Positions 4,474 to 64,000 of a stretch of 64,000 nucleotides of DNA are shown here, piece by piece. The notes below the pieces were generated by a model. It had not been told where the DNA came from. It made no database searches and saw nothing but the letters and a program-made list of their open reading frames with translations. Source of the stretch: an uncultured candidatus Porisulfidus sp. (GTDB taxonomy: Bacteria > Pseudomonadota > Gammaproteobacteria > Poriferisulfidales > Poriferisulfidaceae); the NCBI GenBank assembly GCA_965242985.1, contig OZ251520.1:142426-206425 (forward strand), read 5' to 3'. The translations under genes were made by a program, and so were the position numbers. How positions within the stretch are numbered: the first letter of the stretch is position 1; the number at the start of each line of letters is the position of its first letter.

Positions 4474-6623
4474 AGCGCTTCCTCGCCGGCCCGCTGCCGG
4501 TGCTGGGCGTGTTCCTGCTGCTGTGCGCCTCGCTCGGCGCGATGGCCGAGGCGACCCAGAGCTCCGGGCACTTCCACCGCTGGCAGTGGTGGACGATCGG
4601 CCTCAACGGCGCGCTCGGCGGCGTCCTGCTGGTGCTGATCGGCCTCGCCGTGGCCCGCCTGGCGCGCCAGCTGCGCCGCCGCGAGACCGGCTCCCGGCTG
4701 TCGCTGCGCATGGCGGTGATGTTCGCCGGCTTCACCCTGGTGCCGACCTCCATGGTGTTCGGCTTCTCGATCTGGCTGCTGTCCACCGGCGTCGACAGCT
4801 GGTTCGACGTGGGCGTCGACGACGCCCTGGACAAGGCCGGCAAGCTGAGCCGCTCCTCGATCGACGCGCAGCTGCGCCAGCGCCGCGACCAGATCGAGCG
4901 CCTGCTGCAGGCCGCCGGCGACGTCCGCGACTCGGCCGACGCGGTGGCGCTGACCCACGACCTGGTGCACCGCACCGGCGCCCTGGAGGCGGCGCTGTTC
5001 GACGCCGGCAACCAGATCCTCGCCGCGCAGGGCGAGGCGGTCGACATCGCGCTCGACCGCCCGGACGAGGCCCGGCTGCAGCTGCTGCGCGAGCACGGCG
5101 CCTACCTGACGCAGGAGGAGCACCCGGAGCACGGCACGGTCAGCTACGCGCTGCTGGAGGTGCCGTCGCTGAGCCGCGAGCGGCCGCTGGTGCTGCAGGC
5201 GCGCTACCCGACCTCCGAGCACATGGCCGGGCTGGCCGCCAGCATCGCGCAGGCCGCCGGCACCTACCGGCGGCTGCTGGAGCTGCGCATGCCGCTGAAG
5301 TACAACCTGACGCTGGTGCTGGCGCTGGCGCTGCTGCTGGGGCTGCTGTTCGCGGTGTGGGCGGCGCTGTACTCGGCGCAGCGCATCCTGGCGCCGATCC
5401 CGGAGCTGGCGCGCGGCTTCGAGGCGGTGGCCTCCGGCGAGTACGGCCGCCGCCTGCCGGCCGACCGCCGCGACGAGCTCGGCCACCTGGCGCACGCCTT
5501 CAACCGCATGACCGAGCGGCTGGCCGACAGCCGCTACATCGCCGAGACCCGCCGCCTCACCATCGAGCAGCAGCGCTCCTACCTGAACACGCTCCTCGAG
5601 CACCTGTCGTCCGGGGTGATCAGCCTCGACGCCGACGCCGTGCTGATGACCGCCAACCGCGCCGCCGGCGCCATCCTCGGCCTCAACCTGCAGACGCGCT
5701 TCGGCCAGCCGCTGCTGGCCCTGCGCCGGCTGCACCCGGAGCTGGAGCCGCTGTGGGCGCTGCTCGACGCGCAGCACCGCAGCGAGCGCGAGCTCGAGCG
5801 GCAGCTGCAGCTCCGCGGCGAGCGCCAGACCCTGCTGTGCCACGGCGCGCGGCTGCCGCGGGAGGTCGGCTGCGTGGTGGTGTTCGAGGACATCACCGAC
5901 CTGCAGCAGGCGCAGCGCCAGGCCGCCTGGGGCGAGGTGGCGCGGCGGCTGGCGCACGAGATCAAGAACCCGCTGACCCCGATCCGGCTGTCGGCCGAGC
6001 GGCTGCGGCGCAAGCTCGAGCCGGAGCTGTCCGGCGACGCGGCCGAGCTGCTGCGGCGCGCCGCGCGCACCATCGTCGAGCAGGTCGAGTCCATGCGGCT
6101 GATGCTGAACGAATTCGGCCAGTACGCGGCCGCCGGGTTCCGGCCGGAGCCGGTCGAGCTGGACGCGGCGGTGCGCGAGGTGCTGGACCTGTACCTGGAG
6201 ACCGGCGCGGCCGTCGCCATCCGCCCGCGCCTGAACGCCGCCGGCGCGCGGATCGACGCCGACCCGGGCCGGCTGCGGCAGCTGCTGCACAACCTGCTGA
6301 AGAACGCGCTGGAGGCGCAGGCGGAGCGCATCGCGGGCTTCGTCGAGCTGCGCAGCGAGCGGCGCGGCGGGCAAGTGGCGCTGACGGTGCGCGACGGCGG
6401 CCCCGGCTTCGCCGCGGACGTGATCGGCCGCGCGTTCGAGCCGTACGTCACCACCAAGCCCGGCGGCAGCGGCCTGGGCCTGGCGATGGTGCACAAGATC
6501 GTGCAGGACCACGGCGGCGGCCTGCGCGTATACAATGACCCGGACGCCGGCGGCTGCGTGGAGATCCTGTTCCCGGTCCGCGGCGACGAGCCGGCGGCGG
6601 CGCCGGAGGAGCCGGGGGCATGA
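4458..6623 (+). CDS. ntrY: NtrY-like sensor histidine kinase (TM/HAMP/PAS/HisKA/HATPase)
   Basis: N-terminal TM helices. H-box LAHEIKNPLTPIRLSAERL. G-box GGSGLGLAMVHKIVQDHGG. ATG at 4458 overlaps the upstream gene by 16 nt. Confidence 0.8.
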   Translation: MAAALKRFLAGPLPVLGVFLLLCASLGAMAEATQSSGHFHRWQWWTIGLNGALGGVLLVLIGLAVARLARQLRRRETGSRLSLRMAVMFAGFTLVPTSMVFGFSIWLLSTGVDSWFDVGVDDALDKAGKLSRSSIDAQLRQRRDQIERLLQAAGDVRDSADAVALTHDLVHRTGALEAALFDAGNQILAAQGEAVDIALDRPDEARLQLLREHGAYLTQEEHPEHGTVSYALLEVPSLSRERPLVLQARYPTSEHMAGLAASIAQAAGTYRRLLELRMPLKYNLTLVLALALLLGLLFAVWAALYSAQRILAPIPELARGFEAVASGEYGRRLPADRRDELGHLAHAFNRMTERLADSRYIAETRRLTIEQQRSYLNTLLEHLSSGVISLDADAVLMTANRAAGAILGLNLQTRFGQPLLALRRLHPELEPLWALLDAQHRSERELERQLQLRGERQTLLCHGARLPREVGCVVVFEDITDLQQAQRQAAWGEVARRLAHEIKNPLTPIRLSAERLRRKLEPELSGDAAELLRRAARTIVEQVESMRLMLNEFGQYAAAGFRPEPVELDAAVREVLDLYLETGAAVAIRPRLNAAGARIDADPGRLRQLLHNLLKNALEAQAERIAGFVELRSERRGGQVALTVRDGGPGFAADVIGRAFEPYVTTKPGGSGLGLAMVHKIVQDHGGGLRVYNDPDAGGCVEILFPVRGDEPAAAPEEPGA

Positions 6624-7963
6624 GCCGCGAAACCGTCCTGATCGTCGACGACGAGCCCGACAACCGGGCCCAGATCGAGGAGATCCTGGCCGACGAGGGC
6701 TACACCGTGCTGGCCGCCGAATCGGCGCCGCGCGCGCGCCGCCTGGCGCGCGAGCACCCGGTCGACCTGGCGCTGCTCGACATCTGGATGCCGGGCGAGG
6801 ACGGCCTGAGCCTGCTGAAGTCCTGGCGCCTGTCGGGGCGGGCGCCGTTCCCGGTGCTGATGATGTCCGGCCACGGCACCATCGACACCGCGATCGAGGC
6901 GACGCGGCTCGGCGCCTGGCACTACCTGGAGAAGCCGTTCGCGATGGACAAGCTGCTGCTCAGCGTGTCGCGGGCGCTGGAGGCGCACCGGCTGCGGCAG
7001 CGCAACCAGCGGCTGGCGCGCGACGCCGCCCGCCTCGAGCAGCTGATCGGCGGCGACCCCGCGATCCGGGAGCTGCGCGCGCGCATCGAGGCGCTGGCCG
7101 GCGGCGACGCCCCGGCGCTGATCGTCGGCGAGGCGGGCTGCGAGCACCTGGCGGCGGCGGCCGCGCTGCACCGCGCCGGCCCGCGGCATGCGCAGCCGTT
7201 CGTCCGCAGCGCGCGGCCGGACGCCGGGCAGCTGTTCGAGGGCGACGGCGGGCGCCCCTGCCTGCTGCGCGAGGCGCACGGCGGCACGCTGTACCTGGAG
7301 CCGCTTGACCGGCTGCCGGCGGCGGCGCAGGGGCGCCTGCTGTCGGTGCTGCGCAACCGCCGCCTGCTCGGCGCCGACGGCAGCGCGGCGCCGCTGGACG
7401 TGCGCCTGATCGCCGCGCTGCACCGGCCGCCGGAAGAGGCGGCGGCGGCGGGCGCGCTGGACCCCGGCCTGCGCGCGCTGCTGGGCGCGCCGGCGCTGCG
7501 GCTGCCGCCGCTGCGGGAGCGCGCCAAGGACATCCCGGAGCTGGTGCGGCACTTCGCCAACCACTACTGCAACGAGGAGGGCCTGAACTGGCGCGACTTC
7601 CCGACCGCGGTGATGAACGCCCTGATCCACGAGTCCTGGCCGGGCAACGTCCGCGAGCTCCGCCGCTGCGTCTACCGGCTGCTGATCGCCGGCGGCGAGA
7701 CCGAGGTCAGCCCGCTGGAGCTGGAGCAGTTGCTGCGCCCGCCGGCGCCCGCCGGGGCGGCCGCGGACGGCGCGCTGGAGGCGCTGGCGGGGCTGCCGTT
7801 CCGCCAGGCGCGCGCGCGCTTCGAGCGCGCCTACTACCGCCACCACCTGGAGCGGTGCGGCGGCAACATGCGCCAGCTGGCCGAGAACACCGGCATGGAG
7901 CGCACCTACCTGTACCGCAAGCTCAAGGAGCTGGAGCTGCGGCGGCCGCCGGACGACGACTGA
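6620..7963 (+). CDS. ntrX: NtrX-like response regulator: REC domain, degenerate sigma-54-type AAA+ domain, Fis-type HTH
   Basis: REC domain (LIVDDEP ... D in LLDIWMPGEDG). Central domain aligns to NtrC AAA+ but with GEAGCEH in place of the Walker A (no lysine) and EP in place of the Walker B DE. C-terminal HTH (RQLAENTGMERTYLYRKLKEL). Start overlaps the ntrY stop (ATGA). Confidence 0.8.
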   Translation: MSRETVLIVDDEPDNRAQIEEILADEGYTVLAAESAPRARRLAREHPVDLALLDIWMPGEDGLSLLKSWRLSGRAPFPVLMMSGHGTIDTAIEATRLGAWHYLEKPFAMDKLLLSVSRALEAHRLRQRNQRLARDAARLEQLIGGDPAIRELRARIEALAGGDAPALIVGEAGCEHLAAAAALHRAGPRHAQPFVRSARPDAGQLFEGDGGRPCLLREAHGGTLYLEPLDRLPAAAQGRLLSVLRNRRLLGADGSAAPLDVRLIAALHRPPEEAAAAGALDPGLRALLGAPALRLPPLRERAKDIPELVRHFANHYCNEEGLNWRDFPTAVMNALIHESWPGNVRELRRCVYRLLIAGGETEVSPLELEQLLRPPAPAGAAADGALEALAGLPFRQARARFERAYYRHHLERCGGNMRQLAENTGMERTYLYRKLKELELRRPPDDD

Positions 7964-7970
7964 GGCGCGC

Positions 7971-9332
7971 GTGAAGATCATCATCCTCGGCGCCGGCCGC
8001 ATCGGCAGCTCGCTGGCCATCGGGCTGACGCAGGAGAACAACGAGGTCACGCTGGTCGACCTGAACGAGCGGCTGCTGCGCAGCATCAGCAACCGCGTCG
8101 ACCTGCGCACCCTGCGCGGCCACGGCGCGCACCCCAACATCCTCGCCCAGGCCGGCGCCGAGAACGCCGACATGCTGGTCGCGCTGACCGCCAGCGACGA
8201 GGTCAACATGGTCGCCTGCCAGGTCGCCTACAGCCTGTTCAACGTCCCGCTGCGCATCGCCCGGGTGCGCGCCGCGGAGTACGTCCGCCACCCCGAGCTG
8301 TTCCATTCCGACACCCTGCCGGTCGACGTGCTGATCAGCCCGGAGCAGATCGCCTCGCGCAGCATCGAGCGGCTGATCCGCCAGCCCGGCGTGCTGCAGG
8401 TGATCGAATTCGCCGACGGCCTCGCGCAGCTGGCGGCGGTGCGGGTCGCGGCCGGCGCGCCGGCGGCCGGGCGCCGGCTGGCCGAGCTGCACGAGAGCCT
8501 GCCGAAGGTGCAGCTGCACGTGGCCGCGGTGTACCGCGACGGGCGGGCGGTGCGGCCGGACCCCGACCTGCGGCTGAAGGTGCACGACGAGGTGTTCGTG
8601 CTGGCCGCCGGCGACCAGCTGGGCCAGGTGATCGGCCGGCTGCGCGCGGACGTGCACGCCAGCCGCCACGTGCTGCTGGTCGGCGGCGGCAACATCGGCG
8701 GCAGCGTCGCCGCCGCGCTGGAGGGCGAGTTCCGGGTCAAGCTGATCGAGCGCGACGAGCGGCGCGCGCGCTACATGTCGGAGCAGCTGGCCGACACCCT
8801 GGTGCTGCACGGCGACGCCGCCGACGAGAACCTGATGCTGGACGAGAACCTGCGCGACATGGACGTGTTCTGCGCGCTCACCAACAGCGACGAGGCCAAC
8901 ATCCTGTCCGCGATGCAGGCCAAGCGCATGGGCGCCAACACCGTCATCGCGCTGATCAACCGCCCCTCCTACGTCGACTTGGTGGAGCGCTCCATCGACA
9001 TCGCGGTGTCGCCGCAGCAGGCGACCATGAGCGCGCTGCTGACGCACATCCGGCGCGGCGACGTGCTGTCCGTGCACTCCCTGCGCCGCGGCACGGCCGA
9101 GGCGCTCGAGGCGAAAGCGCACAACACCGCCGACGTGGTCGGGCGCCCGCTCGGCGCGCTCAGCCTGCCGGACAGCGTCGACATCGGCGCCCTGGTGCGC
9201 GGCCGCGAGCTGATCATCCCGGACGACGCCACCGTGATCAAGCCGGACGACCGCGTGATCCTGTTCGTCGGCGACAAGCGCCACATCCGCGACGTGGAGC
9301 GGCTGTTCCAGGTCAGCGCCACGTTCTTCTAG
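7971..9332 (+). CDS. trkA: Trk potassium uptake protein TrkA (two RCK/NAD-binding domains)
   Basis: MKIIILGAGRIGSSLA Rossmann motif at the N-terminus and a second copy (VLLVGGGNIGGSVA) mid-protein. GTG start. Confidence 0.9.
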   Translation: MKIIILGAGRIGSSLAIGLTQENNEVTLVDLNERLLRSISNRVDLRTLRGHGAHPNILAQAGAENADMLVALTASDEVNMVACQVAYSLFNVPLRIARVRAAEYVRHPELFHSDTLPVDVLISPEQIASRSIERLIRQPGVLQVIEFADGLAQLAAVRVAAGAPAAGRRLAELHESLPKVQLHVAAVYRDGRAVRPDPDLRLKVHDEVFVLAAGDQLGQVIGRLRADVHASRHVLLVGGGNIGGSVAAALEGEFRVKLIERDERRARYMSEQLADTLVLHGDAADENLMLDENLRDMDVFCALTNSDEANILSAMQAKRMGANTVIALINRPSYVDLVERSIDIAVSPQQATMSALLTHIRRGDVLSVHSLRRGTAEALEAKAHNTADVVGRPLGALSLPDSVDIGALVRGRELIIPDDATVIKPDDRVILFVGDKRHIRDVERLFQVSATFF

Positions 9333-9334
9333 GC

Positions 9335-10801
9335 ATGGCCGTCCAATTCCGGGTCGTCCAGCGCCTGCTCGGCTACCTGCTGACCTTCTTCAGCCTCAGC
9401 ATGCTGCCGCCGCTGGCGGTCAGCCTCGGCTACGGCGACGGCGAGGCGTTCTCGTTCTTCTACGCCTTCGTGCTGCTGTCGCTGCTCGGCACCGCGCTGT
9501 GGGTGCAGGCCGCCCACCGCGCGCCCCGGCGCAGCCCGCTGCGGCTGCGCGACGGCTTCATCGTGGTGGCGCTGTTCTGGGTCGGCCTGGGGCTGGCCGG
9601 CGCCGTGCCGCTGTACCTGTCGCCGGCGCTCGGCCTGGCCGCGGTCGACGCCGTCTTCGAGTCGGTCTCCGGCCTGACCACCACCGGCGCGACCATCCTC
9701 GCCGGCCTCGACGCGCTGCCGCCCTCGCTGCTGTTCTACCGCCAGTTCCTGCAGTGGATCGGCGGCCTCGGCATCATCGTGCTGGCGGTGGCGGTGCTGC
9801 CGCTGCTCGGCATGGGCGGCATGCAGCTGTACCACGCCGAGGCGCCGCACGCGCTGGCCGAGCGGCGCCTGACGCCGCGCATCACCGAGACCGCCAAGGT
9901 GCTGTGGCACCTGTACCTGGGCCTGACGGTGGCCTGCGGCCTCGCCTACTGGGCCGCCGGCATGACCCCGTTCGACGCGGCGTGCCACGCCTTCTCGACC
10001 ATCGCCATCGGCGGCTTCTCCACCCACGACGCCAGCTTCGCGCATTTCGACAGCATCGCCGTGGAGGCGGTGGCGATGCTGTTCATGACGCTGGCCGGGG
10101 TCAACTTCGGCCTGCACTACCTGGCGCTCAGCAAGCGCCGCCCGCGCCTGTACGCCGAGGACGGGGAATTCCGCGCCTACGCCGCGGTGCTGCTTTGCAC
10201 CGCCGCCGTGTGCATCGCCTACCTGGCCGCGGCCGGCTTCTACGCCGACCCGGCCGACACCCTGCGCCACGGCCTGTTCCAGACCGTGTCCATCGCCACC
10301 ACCACCGGCTTCACCACCACCGGCTACGACCACTGGCCGGCGTTCGTCTCGACCCTGCTGCTGCTGACCAGCTTCATCGGCGGCTGCATCGGCTCCACCG
10401 GCGGCGGCATGAAGGTGGTGCGCTTCCTGCTGATGATCAAGCACGGCCGCAAGGAGCTGCAGCGCATCCTGCACCCGGCCGCGCAGATCACGGTGAAGAT
10501 CGGCAACCGCGTGATGACCGACAACGCGCTGCAGGCGGTGTGGGGCTTCCTCGCCGCCTACATCACCACCTTCGTGGTGGTGCTGCTGCTGCTGCTGCTG
10601 ACCGGCCTCGACCACGTCACCGCCTTCTCGGCGGTGGCCGCCACCCTCAACAACCTCGGCCCGGGCCTCGGCGCGGTGAGCGAGAACTACGCCGCGGTCC
10701 CCGCCGCCGGCAAGGCGCTGCTGTGCCTCAGCATGCTGTTCGGGCGGCTCGAGGTGTTCACCCTGCTGGTGGTGCTGACGCCGTCGTTCTGGCGGCGCTG
10801 A
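9335..10801 (+). CDS. trkH: Trk potassium uptake membrane protein TrkH
   Basis: Multi-TM protein with repeated GLTTTGAT / TTTGFTTTG selectivity-filter-like motifs. Begins 3 nt after the trkA stop. Confidence 0.9.
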
Positions 10802-11343
10802 TGGGACTGCGCGCGCGCTGGAACGCGCGCCGCCGGGCGGCGCGCGCCGATGCGCCGCAACCCTGCGCCCTCTTGGCCGAACAGGCCGCGCTGCTGCCCG
10901 CCGCGGGGCATGCGCTGGACCTCGCCTGCGGCCGCGGCGGCAACGCGCTGTGGCTGGCGCGCCGCGGCTGGACGGTCGACGCCTGGGACCTGTCGGACGC
11001 GGCCGTCGAAGAACTGCGGGCGCGCGCCGCGCGCGAAGGCCTGGACCTGCGCGCCGCGGTCCGCGACGTCATCGCCCGCCCGCCGCCGCCGGACTGCTGC
11101 GACCTGGCGGCGGTGAGCCGTTTCCTGCACCGCCCGCTGCTGCCGGCGCTCGCCGCCGCGGTGCGCCCGGGCGGCCTGCTCGCCTACCAGACGTTCCTCG
11201 CCGGACGCCCCGGCCCCGGCCCGCGCAACCCGGACTACCTGCTGCGCCCGGGCGAACTGCGCGCGCGCTTCGCCGGCTGGGAGGCGCTGCACGACGAAGA
11301 GCGCGGCGGCCAGGCCCTGTGGCTGGCGCGCCGCCCGGGCTAG
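10801..11343 (+). CDS. Small class I SAM-dependent methyltransferase (TehB/tellurite-resistance-like), 180 aa
   Basis: LDLACGRGGNALWLARRGWTVDAWDLS (motif I) and VRPGGLL (post-II). ATG overlaps the trkH stop by 1 nt (TGATG). Convergent 4-nt overlap (CTAG) with lpxL. Confidence 0.7.
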   Translation: MGLRARWNARRRAARADAPQPCALLAEQAALLPAAGHALDLACGRGGNALWLARRGWTVDAWDLSDAAVEELRARAAREGLDLRAAVRDVIARPPPPDCCDLAAVSRFLHRPLLPALAAAVRPGGLLAYQTFLAGRPGPGPRNPDYLLRPGELRARFAGWEALHDEERGGQALWLARRPG

Positions 11344-12227
11344 CGGTACAGCGACGGCGGCTCCATCCGGCGCTTGCGGAAGCGCGGGTAGCTCCACCAG
11401 TACTGCTCGACGGCCTCGCCGATGCAGGCTTCCACGGTGGCGTTGAGGCCGGCGGCGGCGGTCGCCGGCTCCGGCGCATAGACGCGCGCGTCGGCGGGCA
11501 GCACCTCCAGCCGGAAGCCGCCCCGGCGGCGCAGGCAGCGCACCGCCAGCACCGTCACGCCCTGCCGGCGGGCGAGGCGGGCCGCCAGCGCGGCGGTGGC
11601 GGCCGGCACGCCGAAGAACGGCGCCAGCACGCCGTCCTCCAGCCGCCGCGGCGTGTGGTCCGGCAGGATGCCGACCGCCTGCCCGGCCCGCAGGGCCTCG
11701 AGCTGCGCGCGCACGCCGCCGCGGTCGGCCGGCACCAGCACGCCGCCGGTGCGCTCCCGGCCCGCGCGCGCGTAGCGGTCGAGCGCCGGCTGCTTGAGCG
11801 GCCGGTACATGCTGTGCATCTTCACCTCCAGCGCCAGGTACAGCCCGGAGAACTCCCAGTTGCCGAGATGCGGGGTGATCAGGACCACGCCGCCGCCCTT
11901 CGCCTTGGCCCGCTCCAGCAGGTCGAAGCCGGCGGTCTCGACCGCGAGGCGCCGGACGCGCGCCGGCGGCAGCCGCCACAGCCGCGGCGTCTCCAGCAGG
12001 CTGCGGGCTTCGTGGATCAGGCTCTTGCGCGCCGTGTTCTGGTGCCAGGCGTCGTCCCGCCGCGGGAAGCAGGCGCGCAGGTTGATGACCGCGGTGCGGA
12101 AGCGGCGGCCCGGGACGTAGCCCAGCAGCAGGCCCAGAACGCCGCCCAGAAACCGCAGCGCCGGCAGGGGAAGCCGGCCCAGCAGGCGCAGCAGCAGGAT
12201 GAATGCGGAGGCGGACATGTGCGGCAT
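11340..12227 (-). CDS. lpxL: Lipid A biosynthesis lauroyl/myristoyl acyltransferase (LpxL/HtrB family)
   Basis: HLGNWE acyltransferase motif (ITPHLGNWEFSG), N-terminal membrane anchor, about 295 aa. Confidence 0.8.
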   Translation of the reverse strand: MPHMSASAFILLLRLLGRLPLPALRFLGGVLGLLLGYVPGRRFRTAVINLRACFPRRDDAWHQNTARKSLIHEARSLLETPRLWRLPPARVRRLAVETAGFDLLERAKAKGGGVVLITPHLGNWEFSGLYLALEVKMHSMYRPLKQPALDRYARAGRERTGGVLVPADRGGVRAQLEALRAGQAVGILPDHTPRRLEDGVLAPFFGVPAATAALAARLARRQGVTVLAVRCLRRRGGFRLEVLPADARVYAPEPATAAAGLNATVEACIGEAVEQYWWSYPRFRKRRMEPPSLYR

Positions 12228-54996: not shown

Positions 54997-56459
54997 GCCG
55001 GCGGACGGTTGAGGGCGCGGAGCTCGGGCAGCAGGTCGGAGGCTACGAGCCCGGCCTCGCCCGCGGCCGCGGCGCGGTCGCCGGCGGCGCCGTGCAGGCA
55101 GACTCCCAGGCGCGCCGCGTCGGCCGCGGCGAGGCCTTGCGCCCGCAGCCCCGCGACCGCGCCGCACAGCACGTCGCCCGCGCCGGCGGTGGCGAGGCCG
55201 GGATTGCCGTGGGCGCACACGCCCATGCGGCCGGAGTCGGCGACCAGGGTGCCGCAGCCCTTGAGCGCGGCGACTCCGCCGTAGCGCTCGGCCAGCCCGC
55301 GCGCGGCGGCGAAGCGGTCCCGCTGCACATCCGCGGCGGCGCATCCCAGGAGCGCGCCCGCCTCGCCCGGGTGCGGGGTCAGGATCCAGTCCGCCCGCGC
55401 CTGCGGCTCGGCCGCCAGCAGGCGCAGGGCGTCGGCGTCGACCACCAGCGGCGCGCCGCGCTCGAGCGCGGCGGCGAGCATCTCCCGCGCCCAGGCGCCG
55501 CGCCCCAGGCCCGGGCCGATCGCGACCACGTCGGCGGCCTCGAGCAGCTTCCGCAGCTCGGCGCGGTTCGCGACCGCGTGGTGCATCAGTTCCGGGAACG
55601 CCGGCGCGCCGCCGGCCGCGTCCGGCGGCTGCGCGACGCTGACCAGCCCGCAGCCCGCGCGCAGGGCGGCCGCGCCGCACAAGGCGGCCGCGCCCTGGAA
55701 GCCGGCCGCGCCGCCGACCACCAGCACGTGTCCGCAGTCGCCCTTGTGGGCGTTGCGGGAGCGGCGCGGCAGCCGCGCCCGCAGCCGCTCCCAGTCCAGC
55801 AGCTCCGCGTCCGCCGCGACGCCGGCCGCGTCCACGCCGAGGCCGCGGAACACCACCCGCCCGGCGAACTCCGGCCCGTCGGCGGTGTACAGCCCGCGCT
55901 TGCGGCCGATGAACGTGACGGTCTCGCGGACGCGCGCGCAGGGCCCGAGCGCCCGGCCGGTGTCCGCGCACAGCCCGGACGGCAGGTCCGCCGCCACCGC
56001 CGCGGGCGCGGCGTTGATCCGCTCGACGGCGCGCGCCCAGTCGCCCTCCGGCGCGTGCGACAGGCCGGTGCCGAGCAGGGCGTCGACCGCGAGATCCGCG
56101 GCCGGGTCGTCGGCGGGATCGAACGCCCGCATGGCGACCCCCGCGTCCCGGGCCCGTTCCCAGGCGGCGCGGGCGTCGCCGGACAGCTTCTCCCCCGGGC
56201 GCAGCTGCGCCACGCGCACGGCGCGGCCGGCTTCATGCAGCCGCAGCGCGGCGAGGTAGCCGTCGCCGGCGTTGTTGCCGGCGCCGGCGTACACCGCGAT
56301 CCGTTCCGCGCCGGCGTGCTCGGCCTGCAGCCATTCCCACACCGCCTCCGCGGCGCGGCGCATCAGTTCGGCGCCGGACAGGCCCTGCTCCGCCTGCGCC
56401 AGGCGGTCGAGTTCGCGCGACTGCGCGGCGGTGTAGAGGGGAGCGGCGGCGTCCGGCAT
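54993..56459 (-). CDS. nnr: Bifunctional NAD(P)H-hydrate repair enzyme Nnr (epimerase + ADP-dependent dehydratase)
   Basis: N-terminal YjeF_N (GAGNNAGDGY) and C-terminal carbohydrate-kinase-like domain (HKGDCGHVLVVGGAAGFQGAAAL ... GDVLCG). Confidence 0.85.
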   Translation of the reverse strand: MPDAAAPLYTAAQSRELDRLAQAEQGLSGAELMRRAAEAVWEWLQAEHAGAERIAVYAGAGNNAGDGYLAALRLHEAGRAVRVAQLRPGEKLSGDARAAWERARDAGVAMRAFDPADDPAADLAVDALLGTGLSHAPEGDWARAVERINAAPAAVAADLPSGLCADTGRALGPCARVRETVTFIGRKRGLYTADGPEFAGRVVFRGLGVDAAGVAADAELLDWERLRARLPRRSRNAHKGDCGHVLVVGGAAGFQGAAALCGAAALRAGCGLVSVAQPPDAAGGAPAFPELMHHAVANRAELRKLLEAADVVAIGPGLGRGAWAREMLAAALERGAPLVVDADALRLLAAEPQARADWILTPHPGEAGALLGCAAADVQRDRFAAARGLAERYGGVAALKGCGTLVADSGRMGVCAHGNPGLATAGAGDVLCGAVAGLRAQGLAAADAARLGVCLHGAAGDRAAAAGEAGLVASDLLPELRALNRPPA

Positions 56460-56726
56460 CGCCGGGGAATTGTATAGAAGTTGCCGTATTTGCGGGCAAC
56501 ACCCTTTCCCAGCGGGCTGTGCCCTGAAAGCATCTCATTCCGGGAAATAGCCGTTACCCGCCACGGCCCAAGCTAGCCGGGTATGTATTCGTGTATAGTT
56601 GCCGCATGGCGAGTTTCCTGCTGCGCCCGCCAAACGCATGCCTCATCAGCAATTAAACTGCTTTCGTCCGCTGGTGCTGGCGAAATGGGCCGCGCGGGTC
56701 ATTCCCCCCGCAGGCACGACGCTAAA

Positions 56727-57506
56727 ATGAGGCAGCACTACAAAAATCCCCCCATTGAGGAGGCACTTTGCGAGTTCCGTTTCATACCAAGCCGGAAGTG
56801 GGATCTGACGATTCCGGGCATACTGCGCACCAAAGTCGACGAGAAATATGGGGGGGAACCGCGAGAGCAGCGGGTATTTTCGGCAACTTTGAACACCTCG
56901 AACGAAAATTCCCCAGAATTGCAGGCCCACGAAGGATTGGGGAAAGTCATGCTGGTCAACGATAACGCCACTAGAATGATCGGCGTCGGACGCGATGTGA
57001 TCAGCGTGCATATGTTGCGACCGTACCAAAACCCGGACTCGCCTGAAACAAGCGGGTGGGGAGAGTTTCTTCCGCGTATTGAAGAAGCGCTGGGCTCATA
57101 CTGGGACGTGGCGGCCCCCGTCGGAACCGCGAGAATCGGAGTTCGCTACATCAATAAAGTTGCAGTCCCGGAAAATATCGCTAGCATTAAAGCCTTTCTG
57201 CAGGAACGGGTGCGGTGTGCCCTCCCGGACATCGAAAATTTCCCCGGCAGGATGAGCGACCTTACGAGTCGCATCGAATACGACTGCGGAAACAATATCA
57301 AACTGACGCTGTCCCAGTATCTGCTGGCCCCGGGGACTGGGCATCTGGATTTTTTCCTCGATATCGACGTCGTCTGGAGCGCCGATACGGAACCACTCGA
57401 CCTCGCCGCGACACTGGAAAAAGCCGGCGCGTTAAAACAACAGGAAAATGGTGTTTTTGAGGCTTTGATAACGGACAAAGCCCGGGAGCAATTTCATGCA
57501 GGCTAA
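56727..57506 (+). CDS. TIGR04255-family protein (conserved hypothetical, 259 aa), low-GC cassette gene 1
   Basis: N-terminus MRQHYKNPPIEEALCEFRF matches the TIGR04255 hallmark (Y.N.PI.E..CE.RF). GC ~52%. Confidence 0.65.
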   Translation: MRQHYKNPPIEEALCEFRFIPSRKWDLTIPGILRTKVDEKYGGEPREQRVFSATLNTSNENSPELQAHEGLGKVMLVNDNATRMIGVGRDVISVHMLRPYQNPDSPETSGWGEFLPRIEEALGSYWDVAAPVGTARIGVRYINKVAVPENIASIKAFLQERVRCALPDIENFPGRMSDLTSRIEYDCGNNIKLTLSQYLLAPGTGHLDFFLDIDVVWSADTEPLDLAATLEKAGALKQQENGVFEALITDKAREQFHAG

Positions 57507-58113
57507 CACGCAATTCGCAAGCGGCGGCGAAAATTCCGCCGACCGCGGCTTAGTCTCTTGTGTGGCGCTCGGCAAGAGCTCGCTAGCCGTGTCTCCAGCC
57601 ACCATTTCTCTGGAGAAACGGGGAACGGAGCTGATACAGCTCTTTGTCGAGTTTTTGGAGAGGGCTTTACCGCAAGCACCGAGGAGATCTGCCGCGGCGA
57701 ATCACCGGGAGACGCTACTTGATATCAAATTGTGCGCTGCTTTTGATGCCACACCCTTGGAGGACGGCATCGGTCATCCCGCCGAAAGCGTTATCCAAGA
57801 AGCGTTGCTTTCGACCGCAGACAGTCTGCTGGCCGCCGGGATCTTGCGGGAGTTTTGCCTGAACCCAACACGGCCTGTCTTCGGGGCATCGATTCTGCGG
57901 TGCTTGGGGCGCCTGCCAGAGGCGGGCACATCCGAATGGCGCGAACAGCTCGTTCGGGATGCCCTGAAAGCCGATAATCCGGAAGTCAGGGATGCAGCCA
58001 TACAAGCCGCAGAATCGTGGGGCGGCAATGGAATGGCGGCCGTCTTGCGAAAGCACGATGAGCCGGACGCTTTTCTTCGGCACTATCAGTACAAGGTGGT
58101 CGCCAACTTGTGA
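57496..58113 (+). CDS. Hypothetical protein with HEAT/PBS-lyase-like repeats (205 aa), cassette gene 2
   Basis: Overlaps gene 1 by 11 nt. C-terminal units LGRLPEAGTSEWREQLVRDALKADNPEVRDAAIQAAESWG resemble HEAT_2 repeats. Confidence 0.5.
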   Translation: MQANTQFASGGENSADRGLVSCVALGKSSLAVSPATISLEKRGTELIQLFVEFLERALPQAPRRSAAANHRETLLDIKLCAAFDATPLEDGIGHPAESVIQEALLSTADSLLAAGILREFCLNPTRPVFGASILRCLGRLPEAGTSEWREQLVRDALKADNPEVRDAAIQAAESWGGNGMAAVLRKHDEPDAFLRHYQYKVVANL

Positions 58114-58122
58114 TGCAAGTCT

Positions 58123-58632
58123 GTGATCCTCGTGCGCAAAATTTCTCATGCGAAGTGGAAACTGTCTCCAGATTTTCCACCGGAAGAGATTCGCGCGGAT
58201 GCCATCACCGCGGACTTGCGGACCACGGAAAATGCGCTGTCTTTCTGGAAATGCAAAACAGAATCCGATCTCGACGGGCCAGCCTTGGCAATCGCGGCAA
58301 CTATGGATCGAGTCGATAAAATGGACTTGGCGTGGTTGCCGCCGGAAATATTGGCCGAACTCGACTTGGCCCATGCGAATACTGCTGGGAAGACGCCTGT
58401 GGCGAACTGGGTGAACCGCCACATCTCCATCAGCAAACTGGATTATGTCCGTCTCGGAACAGTCGCCCGTCAAATTTCCGCTGCGGTTAAACAGCAACAA
58501 TTCCGGAGGTTTGTCAAGCAAGAGATCGCCGATCTCCTGCTCGCAGCAGTACGCGACGGTCTTGTGAAAGTCCCGGACCTCGACAAAAAATTGCAAAAAG
58601 AGCTCTTTCCCACCCTCTTGAATACAGCCTGA
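58123..58632 (+). CDS. Hypothetical protein (169 aa), cassette gene 3
   Basis: GTG start 10 nt after the gene 2 stop. Protein-like composition, no recognisable domain. Confidence 0.45.
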   Translation: MILVRKISHAKWKLSPDFPPEEIRADAITADLRTTENALSFWKCKTESDLDGPALAIAATMDRVDKMDLAWLPPEILAELDLAHANTAGKTPVANWVNRHISISKLDYVRLGTVARQISAAVKQQQFRRFVKQEIADLLLAAVRDGLVKVPDLDKKLQKELFPTLLNTA

Positions 58633-58778
58633 TCCAAAAGGCTTCCACTGCCGACCTAGGCCACGAGGCGTAGGTCTGAACATAAGTTGTGCTGCGTACT
58701 GGAAGTTGAAAGTTAAAACGGCACGGCGCTCTTGCGGCGTTTTGCTACAATCGAGCCTCTTTCCGCTGGAGATTCCCC

Positions 58779-59363
58779 ATGCAAAATCCCCTGAAATCCG
58801 TCGCCGGCACCCTGATTTCCGGCCTGGTCCTGGCCTTGATCCTGGGCGCCGCGCACCAGGGCTTCACGATCAACCTGCCCTCGCTGATCGTCTGGGCGCA
58901 CGTGTTCGTGGGCATCATCTGGATCGGCCTGCTGTACTACTTCAACTTCGTGCAGATCCCCGCGGTCGGCGAAGCGGCGGCCGACAGCGACGGCCCCGGG
59001 CCCGCCGCCATCAACAAGTACGTCGCCCCCCGGGCGCTGCTGTGGTTCCGCTGGGCGGCGCTGCTGACCTGGCTGACCGGCGCGGCCGCGCTCGAGACCA
59101 TGGGCATCGGCTTCGCCAACGCGTTCCTGCTGCACACCCCCGCCATCGGCATCGGCGTGTGGCTCGGCACCATCATGCTGTTCAACGTGTGGGTGCTGAT
59201 CTGGCCGAACCAGAAGAAGGTGCTCGGCATGGTCGAGGCCAGCGACGAGGAGAAGGCCAAGGCGAAGAACACGGCGATGCTCGCCTCCCGCACCAACACC
59301 CTGCTGTCGATCCCGATGCTGATGTCCATGGTGTCGTTCGGGCACGGCGGCTTGGCGTTCTGA
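58779..59363 (+). CDS. Conserved integral membrane protein (HemJ/PuuD/CopD-like 4-5 TM fold), function uncertain
   Basis: Signal-like N-terminus and multiple TM helices ([22 protein letters not shown]...). Native GC. Sits upstream of argD. Confidence 0.5.
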
Positions 59364-59430
59364 GCGGCGCCCGCTCCTTCCCCGACCCGGCAAGGCGGCA
59401 GCTTCGCGCTGCCGCTTTGCATTTGGCCCG

Positions 59431-60615
<1,185 letters not shown>

Positions 60616-60620
60616 GCGCC

Positions 60621-61526
<906 letters not shown>

Positions 61527-61550
61527 GCGCCGCCGCGCCCGGGCCGCGCC

Positions 61551-62276
61551 TCAGGCGGGCTCGGCCTCGCCCAGCTCCTGCTCGATCTGCTCCACCGAGA
61601 GGTGGCGCAGGTCCTTGCCGAGCACCTGGTACAGCACGTGCTCGCACAGGTTGGCGGCGTGGTCGCCGATGCGCTCCAGCGCCTTGGCGCACCACAGCAC
61701 CTCCAGCACCGGCTGGATGTCGCGCGGGTCCTCCATCATGAACGTGATCATCTGGCGCAGGCTCTGCTCGTACTCCTGGTCGATCTCGGCGTCGCCCTTG
61801 ATCACCGCCAGCGCCGCGTCGGTGTCGAGGCGGGCGAAGGCGTCGCTGGCCCGGCGCAGCGTCTCCAGCACGTTCGCGCTCAGGTGCTTGATGGCGCGCA
61901 TGTGCCGCTTGCGGATGCGGTCGTAGTCGAGCGCCAGCGCCAGGCGGGCGATCTTCTCCGCCTCGTCGCCGACCCGCTCCAGGTCGGCGGTGGCCTTGAT
62001 CACCGCGGTCACCGTGCGCAGGTCGATCGCCACCGGGTGGTGCAGGGCCATGAACTGGTTGCACTCCTCGTCGATGCGGACCTCCAGGGCGTTGATCTTG
62101 AAGTCGGCGCGGGCGATCTTCTTGGCCAGCTTCAGGTCGCCGTCGATGAAGGCCCGCACCGCGCTCCGGACGTGCTCCTCGGCCAGCCCCGCCATCTCCA
62201 TGGTGTGGTCGCGCACGCTCTTCAGGAACTCGGCGAACTGCGTGGAGGAGTGCTGGACGACGTGCTGGGGTTCCAT
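61551..62276 (-). CDS. phoU: Phosphate signalling complex protein PhoU
   Basis: Two PhoU repeats with ERIGDHAANL and conserved D/E clusters. Start MEPQHVV, placed from the track frame. Confidence 0.85.
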   Translation of the reverse strand: MEPQHVVQHSSTQFAEFLKSVRDHTMEMAGLAEEHVRSAVRAFIDGDLKLAKKIARADFKINALEVRIDEECNQFMALHHPVAIDLRTVTAVIKATADLERVGDEAEKIARLALALDYDRIRKRHMRAIKHLSANVLETLRRASDAFARLDTDAALAVIKGDAEIDQEYEQSLRQMITFMMEDPRDIQPVLEVLWCAKALERIGDHAANLCEHVLYQVLGKDLRHLSVEQIEQELGEAEPA

Positions 62277-62424
62277 GGCGGCGGTTCCGGGGAGGTTGGC
62301 GGGGCATTGTACCTGTTGCGGCGCGGAATCGCGCCGCGAACTCCGCGCCTCGGGCGTTGGCCTACAATAGGCGAACGGGCGGGCATCCGCTGCTCGCCGA
62401 CCGCCGGCCACCCGAGAGAAACCG

Positions 62425-63798
62425 ATGCTTACCCGAATGCGTTTGAAAGGCTTCAAATCCTGGCGCGACACCGGGGAGGTCGAGTTGCGTCCGATCACCG
62501 GCATTTTCGGTGCCAACAGTTCCGGGAAGACCAGCCTGCTGCAGGCGCTGTTGCTGCTGAAGCAGACGGCGGACTCGCCAGATCGGTCACTGACACTCCA
62601 TTTCGGCAGTCTCGGAACTCTCGTGAATCTCGAGAGTTTTCTCGACGTGGCACACGGTCACAAATCTAGGGGAACCCTTGACATCGCTCTCGACTGGGAA
62701 ACCGACTCTTCCATGGAAATTACTGACCCAAGCAACGACAATCAAGTCGTTGTTGAAAGCAATAGTCTAGGATTTCAAACTCAGGTTGGCTACAAGAACA
62801 GAACAAAAGGCGCATCCACCTACGTAAAAGAGATGACGTATCGGGTTGGGAATATCTCATTTGGCATGCACCAGAAGTCTCGCAACAGATCTGAGTACGA
62901 GCTCCGCTCTAAAAAAGGAAGTTTCCAGTTCAAACGCGTGCGAGGGTGGCCCGGGGTCCTGCATGGGCCGGACAAGTGCTACGGATTCCCCGATCAGGTT
63001 CGGGCGTATTACCAGAATGCAGGATTCGTGGCGGATCTCGAGTTGGAGCTGGAAAATTGCCTGAGCCGCTTATACTACTTGGGCCCTTTGCGCGAATCCC
63101 CGCTACGCGTGTATTCGTGGAGTGGAGCACAACCCACCGATGTTGGGTCTAGGGGAAAATCTTTCGTCAATGCCATTCTGGCATCGGGCGCACAAGGCAA
63201 CACGATAAAACGAGGTCAAGGTGTGAAGAGCCTTTCTCTCGCGGAATATGTTGCTTGGTGGCTGAAAAAACTCAAACTTGTCCATGAGTTCCGCGTAAAA
63301 CCTGTTGCAAAAGGCAGCCGGCTGTACGAGGTCCGCGTCCGACGTTTCCCAACCTCGCCCGAAGCACTCATTACCGACATCGGCTTCGGCGTGTCGCAGA
63401 TCCTGCCTGTCTTGGTGTTGTGCTTTTACGCCCCGGAAGGATCCACCATTATTCTGGAACAACCGGAAATTCACCTGCATCCCGCCGTACAGTCGGGACT
63501 CGCCGACGTTCTGATCGATGCCCACAAGAAGCGCGGAGTGCAGATCCTTTTGGAAAGCCACAGCGAGCACCTGCTGTACCGGCTGCAGAGGCGCGTCGCG
63601 GAAGAAAAAATCACGGACCGGGAACTCGGCCTGTATTTCTGCAAGGCCTACGGCGGCCATTCCAACTTGACACCGCTTAACATTGATCCGTTTGGTGTCA
63701 TTCATAACTGGCCGGAAGATTTCTTCGGCGACACTTTCGGGGAAATTGCTGCTACACGCAAAGCCGGACTGAAACGTTCTCAGGAAGCAGAAACATGA
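62425..63798 (+). CDS. ABC-type AAA_21-family ATPase (AAA_21 N-terminal / DUF3696-type C-terminal architecture), low-GC
   Basis: N-terminus MRLKGFKSW...ITGIFGANSSGKTSLLQALLLL (Walker A). C-terminus ILEQPEIHLHPAVQ (Walker B / D-loop) ... ESHSEHLL (H-loop). GC ~50%. Confidence 0.75.
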   Translation: MLTRMRLKGFKSWRDTGEVELRPITGIFGANSSGKTSLLQALLLLKQTADSPDRSLTLHFGSLGTLVNLESFLDVAHGHKSRGTLDIALDWETDSSMEITDPSNDNQVVVESNSLGFQTQVGYKNRTKGASTYVKEMTYRVGNISFGMHQKSRNRSEYELRSKKGSFQFKRVRGWPGVLHGPDKCYGFPDQVRAYYQNAGFVADLELELENCLSRLYYLGPLRESPLRVYSWSGAQPTDVGSRGKSFVNAILASGAQGNTIKRGQGVKSLSLAEYVAWWLKKLKLVHEFRVKPVAKGSRLYEVRVRRFPTSPEALITDIGFGVSQILPVLVLCFYAPEGSTIILEQPEIHLHPAVQSGLADVLIDAHKKRGVQILLESHSEHLLYRLQRRVAEEKITDRELGLYFCKAYGGHSNLTPLNIDPFGVIHNWPEDFFGDTFGEIAATRKAGLKRSQEAET

Positions 63799-64000
63799 CC
63801 AAGGATGTGGTTGTTGACACGAATGTCGCCAAAGTCGCTAACGGGGAAACCGAACAAGCGGGCTCCAGTTGCGTTACGTGCTGCATCGATAGACTGTTAG
63901 ATATCCGCCGACATTTCCGCGTCGTACTCGATCACGGCGGAGAAATACTCGAAGAATACGAGAGGAATCTGGAGTTTGCGGGCCCAAATCCCGGGGATGA
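63795..64000 (+). CDS. Partner protein of the AAA_21 ATPase, possibly PIN-like nuclease; 3' end outside window
   Basis: ATG overlaps the ATPase stop (ATGA). N-terminus MTKDVVVDTNVAKVANGETE resembles the first strand and acidic residue of PIN-fold nucleases. Only 68 codons are visible. Confidence 0.4.
   Translation, partial: MTKDVVVDTNVAKVANGETEQAGSSCVTCCIDRLLDIRRHFRVVLDHGGEILEEYERNLEFAGPNPGD

Follow-up and report, generated by a model that had tools for sequence, protein, structure and literature searches.

While analysing a stretch of DNA of 64,000 nucleotides (nt; hereinafter, the window) from an uncultured gammaproteobacterium, candidatus Porisulfidus sp. (contig OZ251520.1, positions 142,426 to 206,425 of the forward strand), we observed that two adjacent genes at its distal edge, which encode an ABC-type ATPase and a predicted nuclease of the PIN fold, very probably represent the anti-phage system HEC-03, which consists of two genes and, in this case, is apparently intact and was acquired horizontally. 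The assignment to HEC-03 can be made with high confidence because both proteins match the HEC-03 models of PADLOC over their full length. HEC-03 is one of the nine 'Hma-embedded candidates' (Hma, Helicase-Methylase-ATPase) of Payne et al. (bioRxiv 10.1101/2024.01.29.577857), where it is described as an ABC ATPase combined with a PIN protein similar to VapC ribonucleases. In the same study, one representative, introduced into E. coli, reduced plaque formation by orders of magnitude for at least two phages, protection required both genes, and isopropyl β-D-thiogalactopyranoside (IPTG) was left out for the HEC-03 strain on account of apparent toxicity (bioRxiv 10.1101/2024.01.29.577857). An earlier reading of the window by a model that saw only the sequence (the sequence-only reading) had recognized in these genes a defence-type ATPase and a PIN-like partner and held that such a combination could not be placed in any described system; the latter claim does not stand, given that both proteins match the models of a system already described by Payne et al., so the combination is known rather than new. 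The component labels are swapped between the two sources, the ATPase being HEC-03A in Payne et al. and HEC-03B in PADLOC-DB. In the literature searched, we found no mechanistic study of HEC-03 and no biochemical data on its PIN protein.

The first gene encodes a protein of 457 amino acids (aa), which aligns over residues 1-453 with positions 1-453 of the 458-position PADLOC-DB profile PDLC04148 ('HEC-03B') at an E-value of 3.3e-156 (518.9 bits), a full-length match that puts the identification far beyond chance. The next matches in this database are to NsnB of the Menshen system (E 1.3e-58, 197 bits) and to PDC-M55A (E 5.3e-58), and those to AriA (E 4e-23), GajA, AbiL and HEC-01 are only partial. 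Among the Pfam families, AAA_15 (4.7e-22), AAA_21 (1e-20) and AAA_23 are detected, along with DUF3696 (PF12476, 8.6e-8) at the C-terminus, and the matches to ABC_tran (E 0.049, 14.7 bits versus a cut-off of 25), SMC_N and RecF-type proteins fall below the threshold and cover just the P-loop region. NCBIfam offers no family-level name for this protein or for its partner, and a sequence search of the PDB yielded only an N-terminal P-loop match to an OLD nuclease. The AlphaFold2 model of the ATPase (predicted local distance difference test score, pLDDT, 88.1) has its best fold matches in the PDB to PtuA of retron-linked and other Septu systems, Gabija GajA, the heads of SMC and Rad50, and an OLD nuclease, with E-values of about 1e-10; no HEC-03 or Menshen entries are found among the 50 best matches. 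The protein search also returned a sequence identical to the window ATPase (P0001), from an NCBI/ENA contig of 1,877,398 bp.

Conservation in the ATPase was assessed over an alignment of 47 homologues. The split arrangement of Walker A, followed at a distance by Walker B, D-loop and H-loop, that the sequence-only reading had described is present and is invariant in the family, and its assignment of the protein to the AAA_21-type defence ATPases likewise is borne out by the Pfam and fold matches. Apart from the Walker A and H-loop residues (Table 1), the invariant positions include G320, F321, G322, V323 and Q325 of the signature-like motif, I343, L344, E345 and P347 of the Walker B region (E348 is conserved in at least 90% of the sequences), L351 and H352, as well as R223, which occupies the Q-loop position. 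By contrast with this core, the region of residues ~81-180 is poorly conserved; in the structural model, it contains strands (E84-163), and its residues 141-180 show the lowest identity to the syntenic orthologues described below (0.3-0.5). This insert is a candidate sensor or specificity region. Altogether, the first gene encodes an ABC ATPase that resembles SMC and Rad50, contains a variable insert rich in beta strands and has a DUF3696 tail at its C-terminus.

The TGA stop codon of the ATPase gene (63796-63798) overlaps the ATG start codon of the second gene (63795-63797) as ATGA, both genes being on the plus strand; the second gene is translationally coupled to the first. The open reading frame (ORF) of the partner runs off the window after 68 codons, and this fragment alone matches the PADLOC-DB profile PDLC04147 ('HEC-03A', profile length 159) with an E-value of 1.6e-12. 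A database protein of 160 aa, P0125, is identical to the fragment over its residues 1-68, and is recorded on a contig of the same length as that of P0001; we take it to be the probable full-length partner. Its residues 5-155 align with profile positions 3-153 of 159 at an E-value of 1.1e-28, which is its sole match in PADLOC, with none to NsnC of Menshen. The AlphaFold2 model of the partner, built with 69 homologues (mean pLDDT 93.6), has a Rossmann-like PIN fold, in agreement with the earlier suggestion that its N-terminus, with an aspartate now seen to be invariant (D8), forms the first strand of a PIN domain and that the partner is neither an HNH nor a TOPRIM protein. In the alignment of 69 partner sequences, the acidic residues D8, D46, E54, D111 and D132 are invariant, together with T9 and N10, and all five acidic residues are retained in the window protein. 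In the model, D8 follows strand 1, E54 lies in the helix after strand 2, D111 is at the start of the helix after strand 3, and D132 follows strand 4; on the strength of this placement, as opposed to a residue-level superposition on VapC, these four residues appear to occupy the canonical D-E-D-D positions of PIN nucleases. The family has a mean column identity of 61% and comprises 1,576 clusters at 50% identity (E <=1e-3), almost all of them stand-alone proteins of 155-180 aa. As modelled, the product of the second gene is a 160-aa stand-alone VapC-like PIN protein, a predicted nuclease. A few members of the partner family, such as P0367 (479 aa, PIN at 318-478) and P0435 (352 aa, PIN at 191-350), are far longer than 160 aa and may be fusions or gene-calling read-throughs that involve the C-terminus of the ATPase.

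The composition of the DNA changes abruptly at the pair. In windows of 400 nt, the guanine-plus-cytosine (GC) content is 0.68-0.82 over 58800-62400 and 0.50-0.56 from ~62400 to 64000 (overall, 0.537 in the cassette versus 0.745 in the flank), and the third-position GC (GC3) is 0.61 in the ATPase gene versus 0.98 in argD. The fall in GC after phoU that the sequence-only reading had reported thus is real, but the low-GC tract, which it had extended over 62290-64000, begins only at the start codon of the ATPase gene (62425), and the segment 62290-62424 is part of a high-GC intergenic region common to the syntenic relatives. This region of 148 nt separates the ATPase gene from the divergently transcribed phoU (start at 62276, minus strand) and presumably contains the promoters of both genes; no sigma-70 consensus promoter was found upstream of the ATPase gene within 62277..62424. 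Nor did the borders of the insert reveal a tRNA gene, an integrase or notable flanking direct or inverted repeats.

Two metagenomic contigs (L001 and L002) contain the orthologous pair at the same site, in the gene order Urate_ox_N, argD, argF, phoU (minus strand), ATPase, 160-aa partner and a convergent MFS gene, the latter located only ~9 nt past the stop codon of the partner. The pair therefore stands as a bare insert of two genes rather than within an operon running on downstream, and the transporter operon that the sequence-only reading had named as the observation that would overturn its proposal is not seen. The ATPases of these contigs are 77% (L001) and 74% (L002) identical to the window protein, and the N-termini of the PIN proteins are 78-81% identical among the three carriers, whereas the flanking housekeeping proteins are 86-99% identical. 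The GC content of the cassette differs among the carriers as well (54, 57 and 62%, with GC3 of 0.61, 0.69 and 0.80, comparing window positions 62425-64000 with positions 10001-11862 of L001 and L002). This divergence in excess of the flanks suggests that the cassette evolves fast or that alleles are replaced at this locus.

In other relatives, the same junction is occupied differently. In L083-L086, in which PhoU is 89% identical to that of the window, a single gene for a 371-aa M48-peptidase/PDZ protein (4745-5860, minus strand, GC 69%), which has no PADLOC match, is located between the MFS gene and phoU, and in L087-L089 (PhoU 72% identical), the slot is empty, with a gap of 19 nt (5982-6000) between the MFS gene and phoU. 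The MFS/phoU junction thus is a variable slot in this gammaproteobacterial lineage. Because this slot is empty or filled by another gene in relatives, the pair is accessory cargo and, given also the GC content of 54% versus 74%, foreign DNA.

When GTDB species representatives were scanned with the profile of the partner, at least 543 encoding loci were detected, spread over many phyla, among them Chloroflexota, Latescibacterota, Acidobacteriota, Planctomycetota and Pseudomonadota; neighbourhoods were extracted for 80 of these loci, a set that does not include the window's own genome. In 81 of 82 related loci, the PIN gene is immediately preceded by the gene of an ATPase homologue in the same orientation, the exception being a partner gene at a contig edge. 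The distance between the two genes is uniformly short: the ATPase stop and the PIN start overlap by 4 nt in 31 of the 56 loci that could be scored, and any gap is no longer than 15 nt in all 56. Some loci look damaged or rearranged: beside the PIN genes of L074 and L080, there are only partial ATPase alignments (ATPase region ~6800-7980) and no long ATPase ORF, and ~1.9 kb separates the ATPase (4774-6096) from the PIN (8001) in L061.

Clustering of ~1,000 neighbouring ORFs showed that the pair recurs next to genes for a DUF1156 methylase (in 15 loci), a helicase of the SNF2 type (in 9), a DUF499 ATPase that starts with a HEPN_Swt1 domain (in 8) and type I HsdR (in 5), as well as an N6/N4 DNA methylase and a Schlafen/AlbA_2 protein. 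We equate the combination of DUF1156, SNF2 helicase and DUF499/HEPN ATPase with the Hma system, the genes of which flank the pair in roughly 8-15 of the 80 loci; in L081, for instance, the helicase and DUF1156 genes, in this order, precede those of the HEC-03 ATPase and PIN, and DUF499 follows. The embedding in Hma that led to the discovery of HEC-03 thus is independently reproduced, and the presence of Hma and type I restriction-modification (RM) genes beside the pair in other genomes answers in the affirmative the question, raised by the sequence-only reading, of whether such pairs occur in defence islands. The window copy resembles HEC-03 as modelled in PADLOC-DB v2 (PDLC04147, PDLC04148) in combining an ABC ATPase that has a DUF3696 tail with a ~160-aa PIN protein, encoded by adjacent genes on the same strand, and differs in standing alone between phoU and MFS genes, as it does in L001 and L002, instead of being embedded in Hma, which is not needed for membership, and in two substitutions in the PIN protein (see below).

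A three-gene variant of HEC-03, in which ATPase and PIN genes are followed, 4-6 nt downstream of the PIN, by an RNA ligase gene (PF09414, 2.2e-33), was identified on plasmids of Aeromonas veronii (L090, NZ_AP022291.1, 7001-9629) and Azotobacter chroococcum (L091, pAcX50e, 9001-11619). The proteins of the Aeromonas plasmid are 43% (ATPase) and 36% (PIN) identical to those of the window and match the HEC-03 models, and this copy is located amid AbiEii, Hok/Gef and GASH genes. The 80 GTDB loci and the relatives of the window all lack the RNA ligase gene. In the phage collection, there was no full-length homologue, only partial ATPase matches.

Menshen (NsnABC) shares with the pair an ATPase homologous to NsnB, the DUF3696 tail and a PIN-fold protein encoded after the ATPase. 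Furthermore, in both NsnB and the HEC-03 ATPase, an arginine (R223 in the latter) replaces glutamine at the Q-loop position, and the signature is GxG; both traits have been described as peculiarities of NsnB (PMC12065111). For Menshen, AlphaFold 3 predicts an NsnB tetramer, two DUF3696 tails of which clamp the PIN-like N-domain of NsnC, an arrangement that has been compared with those in the solved complexes of Septu and PARIS, each with a nuclease held by an ABC ATPase, and NsnC itself is a hypervariable protein in which an inactive PIN-like N-domain, devoid of the acidic residues, is fused to a C-terminal toxin (PMC12065111). By contrast, the HEC-03 partner is a well conserved, single-domain PIN protein of ~160 aa that keeps the acidic residues, and the pair described here lacks the NsnA gene (ParB-DUF262, with ParBDB), the upstream gene being the divergent phoU. 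Of the Menshen components, only the NsnB-type ATPase with its DUF3696 tail is found, scoring far higher with the HEC-03 model, and counterparts of NsnA and NsnC are missing. The relationship between HEC-03 and Menshen is drawn neither in Payne et al. nor in the Menshen paper (PMC12065111).

PARIS (AriA/AriB) and Septu (PtuA/PtuB, including the retron-linked forms) resemble HEC-03 in being two-gene systems, and in them an ABC ATPase both holds a small nuclease and regulates it. However, the effectors of these systems are TOPRIM (AriB) or HNH (PtuB) proteins rather than PIN, and the ATPase similarity is limited to the core motifs, the inserts and the C-terminal tail being different. Membership of the pair in PARIS, Septu or Gabija was considered and rejected, in the absence of an AriB TOPRIM, a PtuB HNH, a GajB helicase or a GajA TOPRIM fusion and in the presence of a PIN partner; the profile matches to AriA, GajA and PtuA, too, are partial and extend over the core motifs alone. 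VapBC differs in that its partner gene encodes a DNA-binding antitoxin of the VapB type, which is lacking here, the partner gene being that of the 457-aa ATPase; moreover, the similarity of the HEC-03 PIN to the Pfam PIN families is marginal, and it has an extra segment at residues ~86-108. In the anticodon nucleases PrrC and RloC, which function in phage defence, an ABC-type ATPase and an RNA-cleaving effector, other than PIN, are fused in one protein. These nucleases share with HEC-03 the coupling of an ATPase to an effector that cleaves RNA, putatively so in HEC-03, where the two are separate proteins and the effector is a PIN, and RNA repair recurs as a theme in the RNA ligase gene of the plasmid variants. 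PrrC and RloC are mentioned by Payne et al. (bioRxiv 10.1101/2024.01.29.577857).

By analogy with these systems, a plausible mechanism of HEC-03 can be envisaged. Given that the ATPase is a homologue of NsnB with the same tail, dimers or tetramers of the ATPase would sequester the PIN protein in an inactive state through the DUF3696 tails, which are the predicted docking site; the variable insert would read a phage-derived cue, and binding or hydrolysis of ATP would free or activate the PIN. The released PIN would cut RNA, most likely, tRNA or rRNA, so that translation would stop and, as we infer, the infection would be aborted. VapC enzymes cleave tRNA or rRNA. The RNA ligase gene in the plasmid variants is a hint that RNA is the substrate, and the apparent toxicity of the homologue studied by Payne et al. 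fits a toxic effector that is held in check. Conceivably, although we offer this only as a tentative conjecture that we consider less probable than not, HEC-03 is a minimal, catalytically active sibling of Menshen, in which an NsnB-like ATPase clamps a live PIN RNase via the DUF3696 tails, the inactive PIN domains of Menshen descend from such an effector, the RNA ligase reverses RNA damage (for example, tRNA nicking), and the divergence of the cassette (74-81% identity versus 86-99% in the flanks) reflects allele turnover under phage pressure.

Several observations weigh against the interpretation of the pair as a functional HEC-03 system. In this genome, the pair lies neither within nor beside a recognized defence system, and its anti-phage role is carried over, by analogy, from a single representative cloned in E. 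coli; similarly, the docking of the PIN on the ATPase, the trigger and the RNA target would follow from analogies to Menshen, PARIS and Septu. For the final 92 codons of the partner gene, beyond the window, we rely on P0125, which places the expected end of the gene near 64277. No Pfam PIN match is obtained for the window partner, where the sequence-only reading had looked to such a search for support, and only 32 of the 69 relatives match PIN_3, weakly, with the best E-value of 4.6e-4; the partner profile retrieves only chance SH3 matches from the PDB sequences (E 0.1 or worse), and hhalign of this profile with a single Pfam-PIN protein from L001 gave nothing. Foldseek does rank PIN proteins first in the PDB for the partner model, with E-values of 6e-3 or weaker. 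Thus, the PIN assignment rests on the predicted fold and on residue conservation, the case being strong at the level of the fold and weak at the level of sequence.

Furthermore, the window PIN contains histidine and glycine (D108H and D134G) in two positions that are occupied by aspartate in at least 90% of the 69 relatives, and its activity could be altered by these substitutions. A local copy that is decaying or functionally altered, with a weakened or retargeted PIN, nevertheless seems rather unlikely: the five invariant acidic residues and all invariant residues of the ATPase are intact, neither ORF is truncated, provided that P0125 is the partner, and P0127, which is 77% identical to the window PIN, likewise has H108 and G134, so the two substitutions are not a private lesion. 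The VapC-like fold of the partner, the need to leave the HEC-03 homologue uninduced because of apparent toxicity, the presence of a bare two-gene insert among housekeeping genes in the same slot of three related genomes, and the proximity of AbiEii and Hok/Gef modules in the Aeromonas plasmid all would be compatible with a selfish toxin-antitoxin or addiction module, in which the PIN toxin is neutralized by the ATPase as a protein antitoxin and which persists through post-segregational killing without any role in defence. We consider this a poor alternative, of low probability, inasmuch as the cloned representative, through both of its genes, protects against phages and relatives recur inside Hma and beside RM systems; besides, toxin-antitoxin-like behaviour and defence by abortive infection can coexist.

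The similarity of the ATPase to NsnB, together with the NsnB-typical DUF3696 tail and the PIN-like domain with which NsnC starts, brings up the further possibility that the pair is what remains of a Menshen system of three genes after the loss of the NsnA sensor and of the effector half of NsnC. However, the HEC-03B match is far stronger (519 versus 197 bits), and no DUF262/ParB gene is adjacent to the pair at the window, in L001 or L002, or found among the recurrent neighbours of the 80 loci; the partner belongs to a conserved single-domain family with 1,576 clusters, retains the acidic residues that are lost in NsnC, and has no NsnC match in PADLOC, which makes such an origin highly improbable. 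Finally, the weak N-terminal P-loop matches to ABC_tran, RecF, SMC and Rad50 might be construed as an indication of a housekeeping ATPase, either of an ABC transporter or of a RecF/SMC-like repair system, next to an unrelated small protein. These matches, however, are far below the curated cut-offs and extend over only ~45 residues, no permease gene is adjacent, the convergent MFS gene being next in the relatives, and the pair is absent from related genomes and foreign in composition, so we give this alternative virtually no credence; the identification as an ATP-binding subunit of an ABC transporter, in particular, is effectively refuted by the ABC_tran score and the lack of a permease.

With HEC-03 as the preferred identification, the locus represents a further stand-alone copy of a defence system that is widespread, in this case, as bare two-ORF cargo in a variable slot of the chromosome of a gammaproteobacterium with very high GC; for this slot, the syntenic relatives supply filled, differently filled and empty states for comparison. 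The comparison with Menshen exposes a possible structural link between the two systems, the putative docking of the PIN on the DUF3696 tail, and the variant with the RNA ligase hints at the substrate of HEC-03. Any well-behaved HEC-03 homologue is a candidate for biochemistry. The residual interest of the locus lies in the HEC-03/Menshen relationship, the biology of the variable slot and the RNA-ligase variant.

Table 1. Features of the HEC-03 locus, in window coordinates
Feature	Position	Strand	Basis
Intergenic region between phoU and the ATPase gene	62277..62424		high GC; much of the stretch, including TTGGCCTACAATAGGCG, is common to the syntenic L001 and L002
HEC-03 ABC-type ATPase, 457 aa	62425..63798	+	PADLOC PDLC04148; Pfam AAA_15, AAA_21, AAA_23, DUF3696
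Walker A / P-loop, G29-A-N-S-S-G-K35-T36	62509..62532	+	G29, N31, S32, S33, G34 and K35 invariant in 47 homologues
Variable beta-rich insert, residues ~81-180	62665..62964	+	column conservation 0.45-0.58 versus 0.8-0.96 in the core
Signature-like G320-F-G-V-S-Q325 to Walker B I343-L-E345-Q-P-E348	63382..63468	+	conserved columns in 47 homologues
H-loop histidine H379	63559..63561	+	E377, S378 and H379 invariant in 47 homologues
C-terminal DUF3696 tail, residues 397-441	63613..63747	+	Pfam PF12476, E 8.6e-8
HEC-03 PIN partner, first 68 of 160 codons	63795..64000	+	D8 at 63816-63818, D46 at 63930-63932, E54 at 63954-63956

The window contains a second low-GC island (~55% GC, 56450-58700), which is located between a YjeF-type gene and Urate_ox_N and has no PADLOC matches. 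Its three ORFs (56727-57506, 57496-58113 and 58123-58632, all on the plus strand) overlap or nearly abut and encode a TIGR04255-family protein (E 1.3e-26), a HEAT-repeat-like protein and a 169-aa protein without an assigned family. In L083-L086, this slot contains the same module of three genes, the identities being only 63, 43 and 51%, and L001 and L002 lack the module, which could be accessory and uncharacterized, possibly, with a relation to defence. A few kilobases beyond the HEC-03 slot, outside the part of the chromosome that corresponds to the window, VapC-type PIN genes and FitA-like ribbon-helix-helix antitoxin genes are clustered in L001 (16550-17755) and L002 (16488-18879), and the L001 cluster additionally includes an IS605 OrfB/Cas12f-like TnpB gene.

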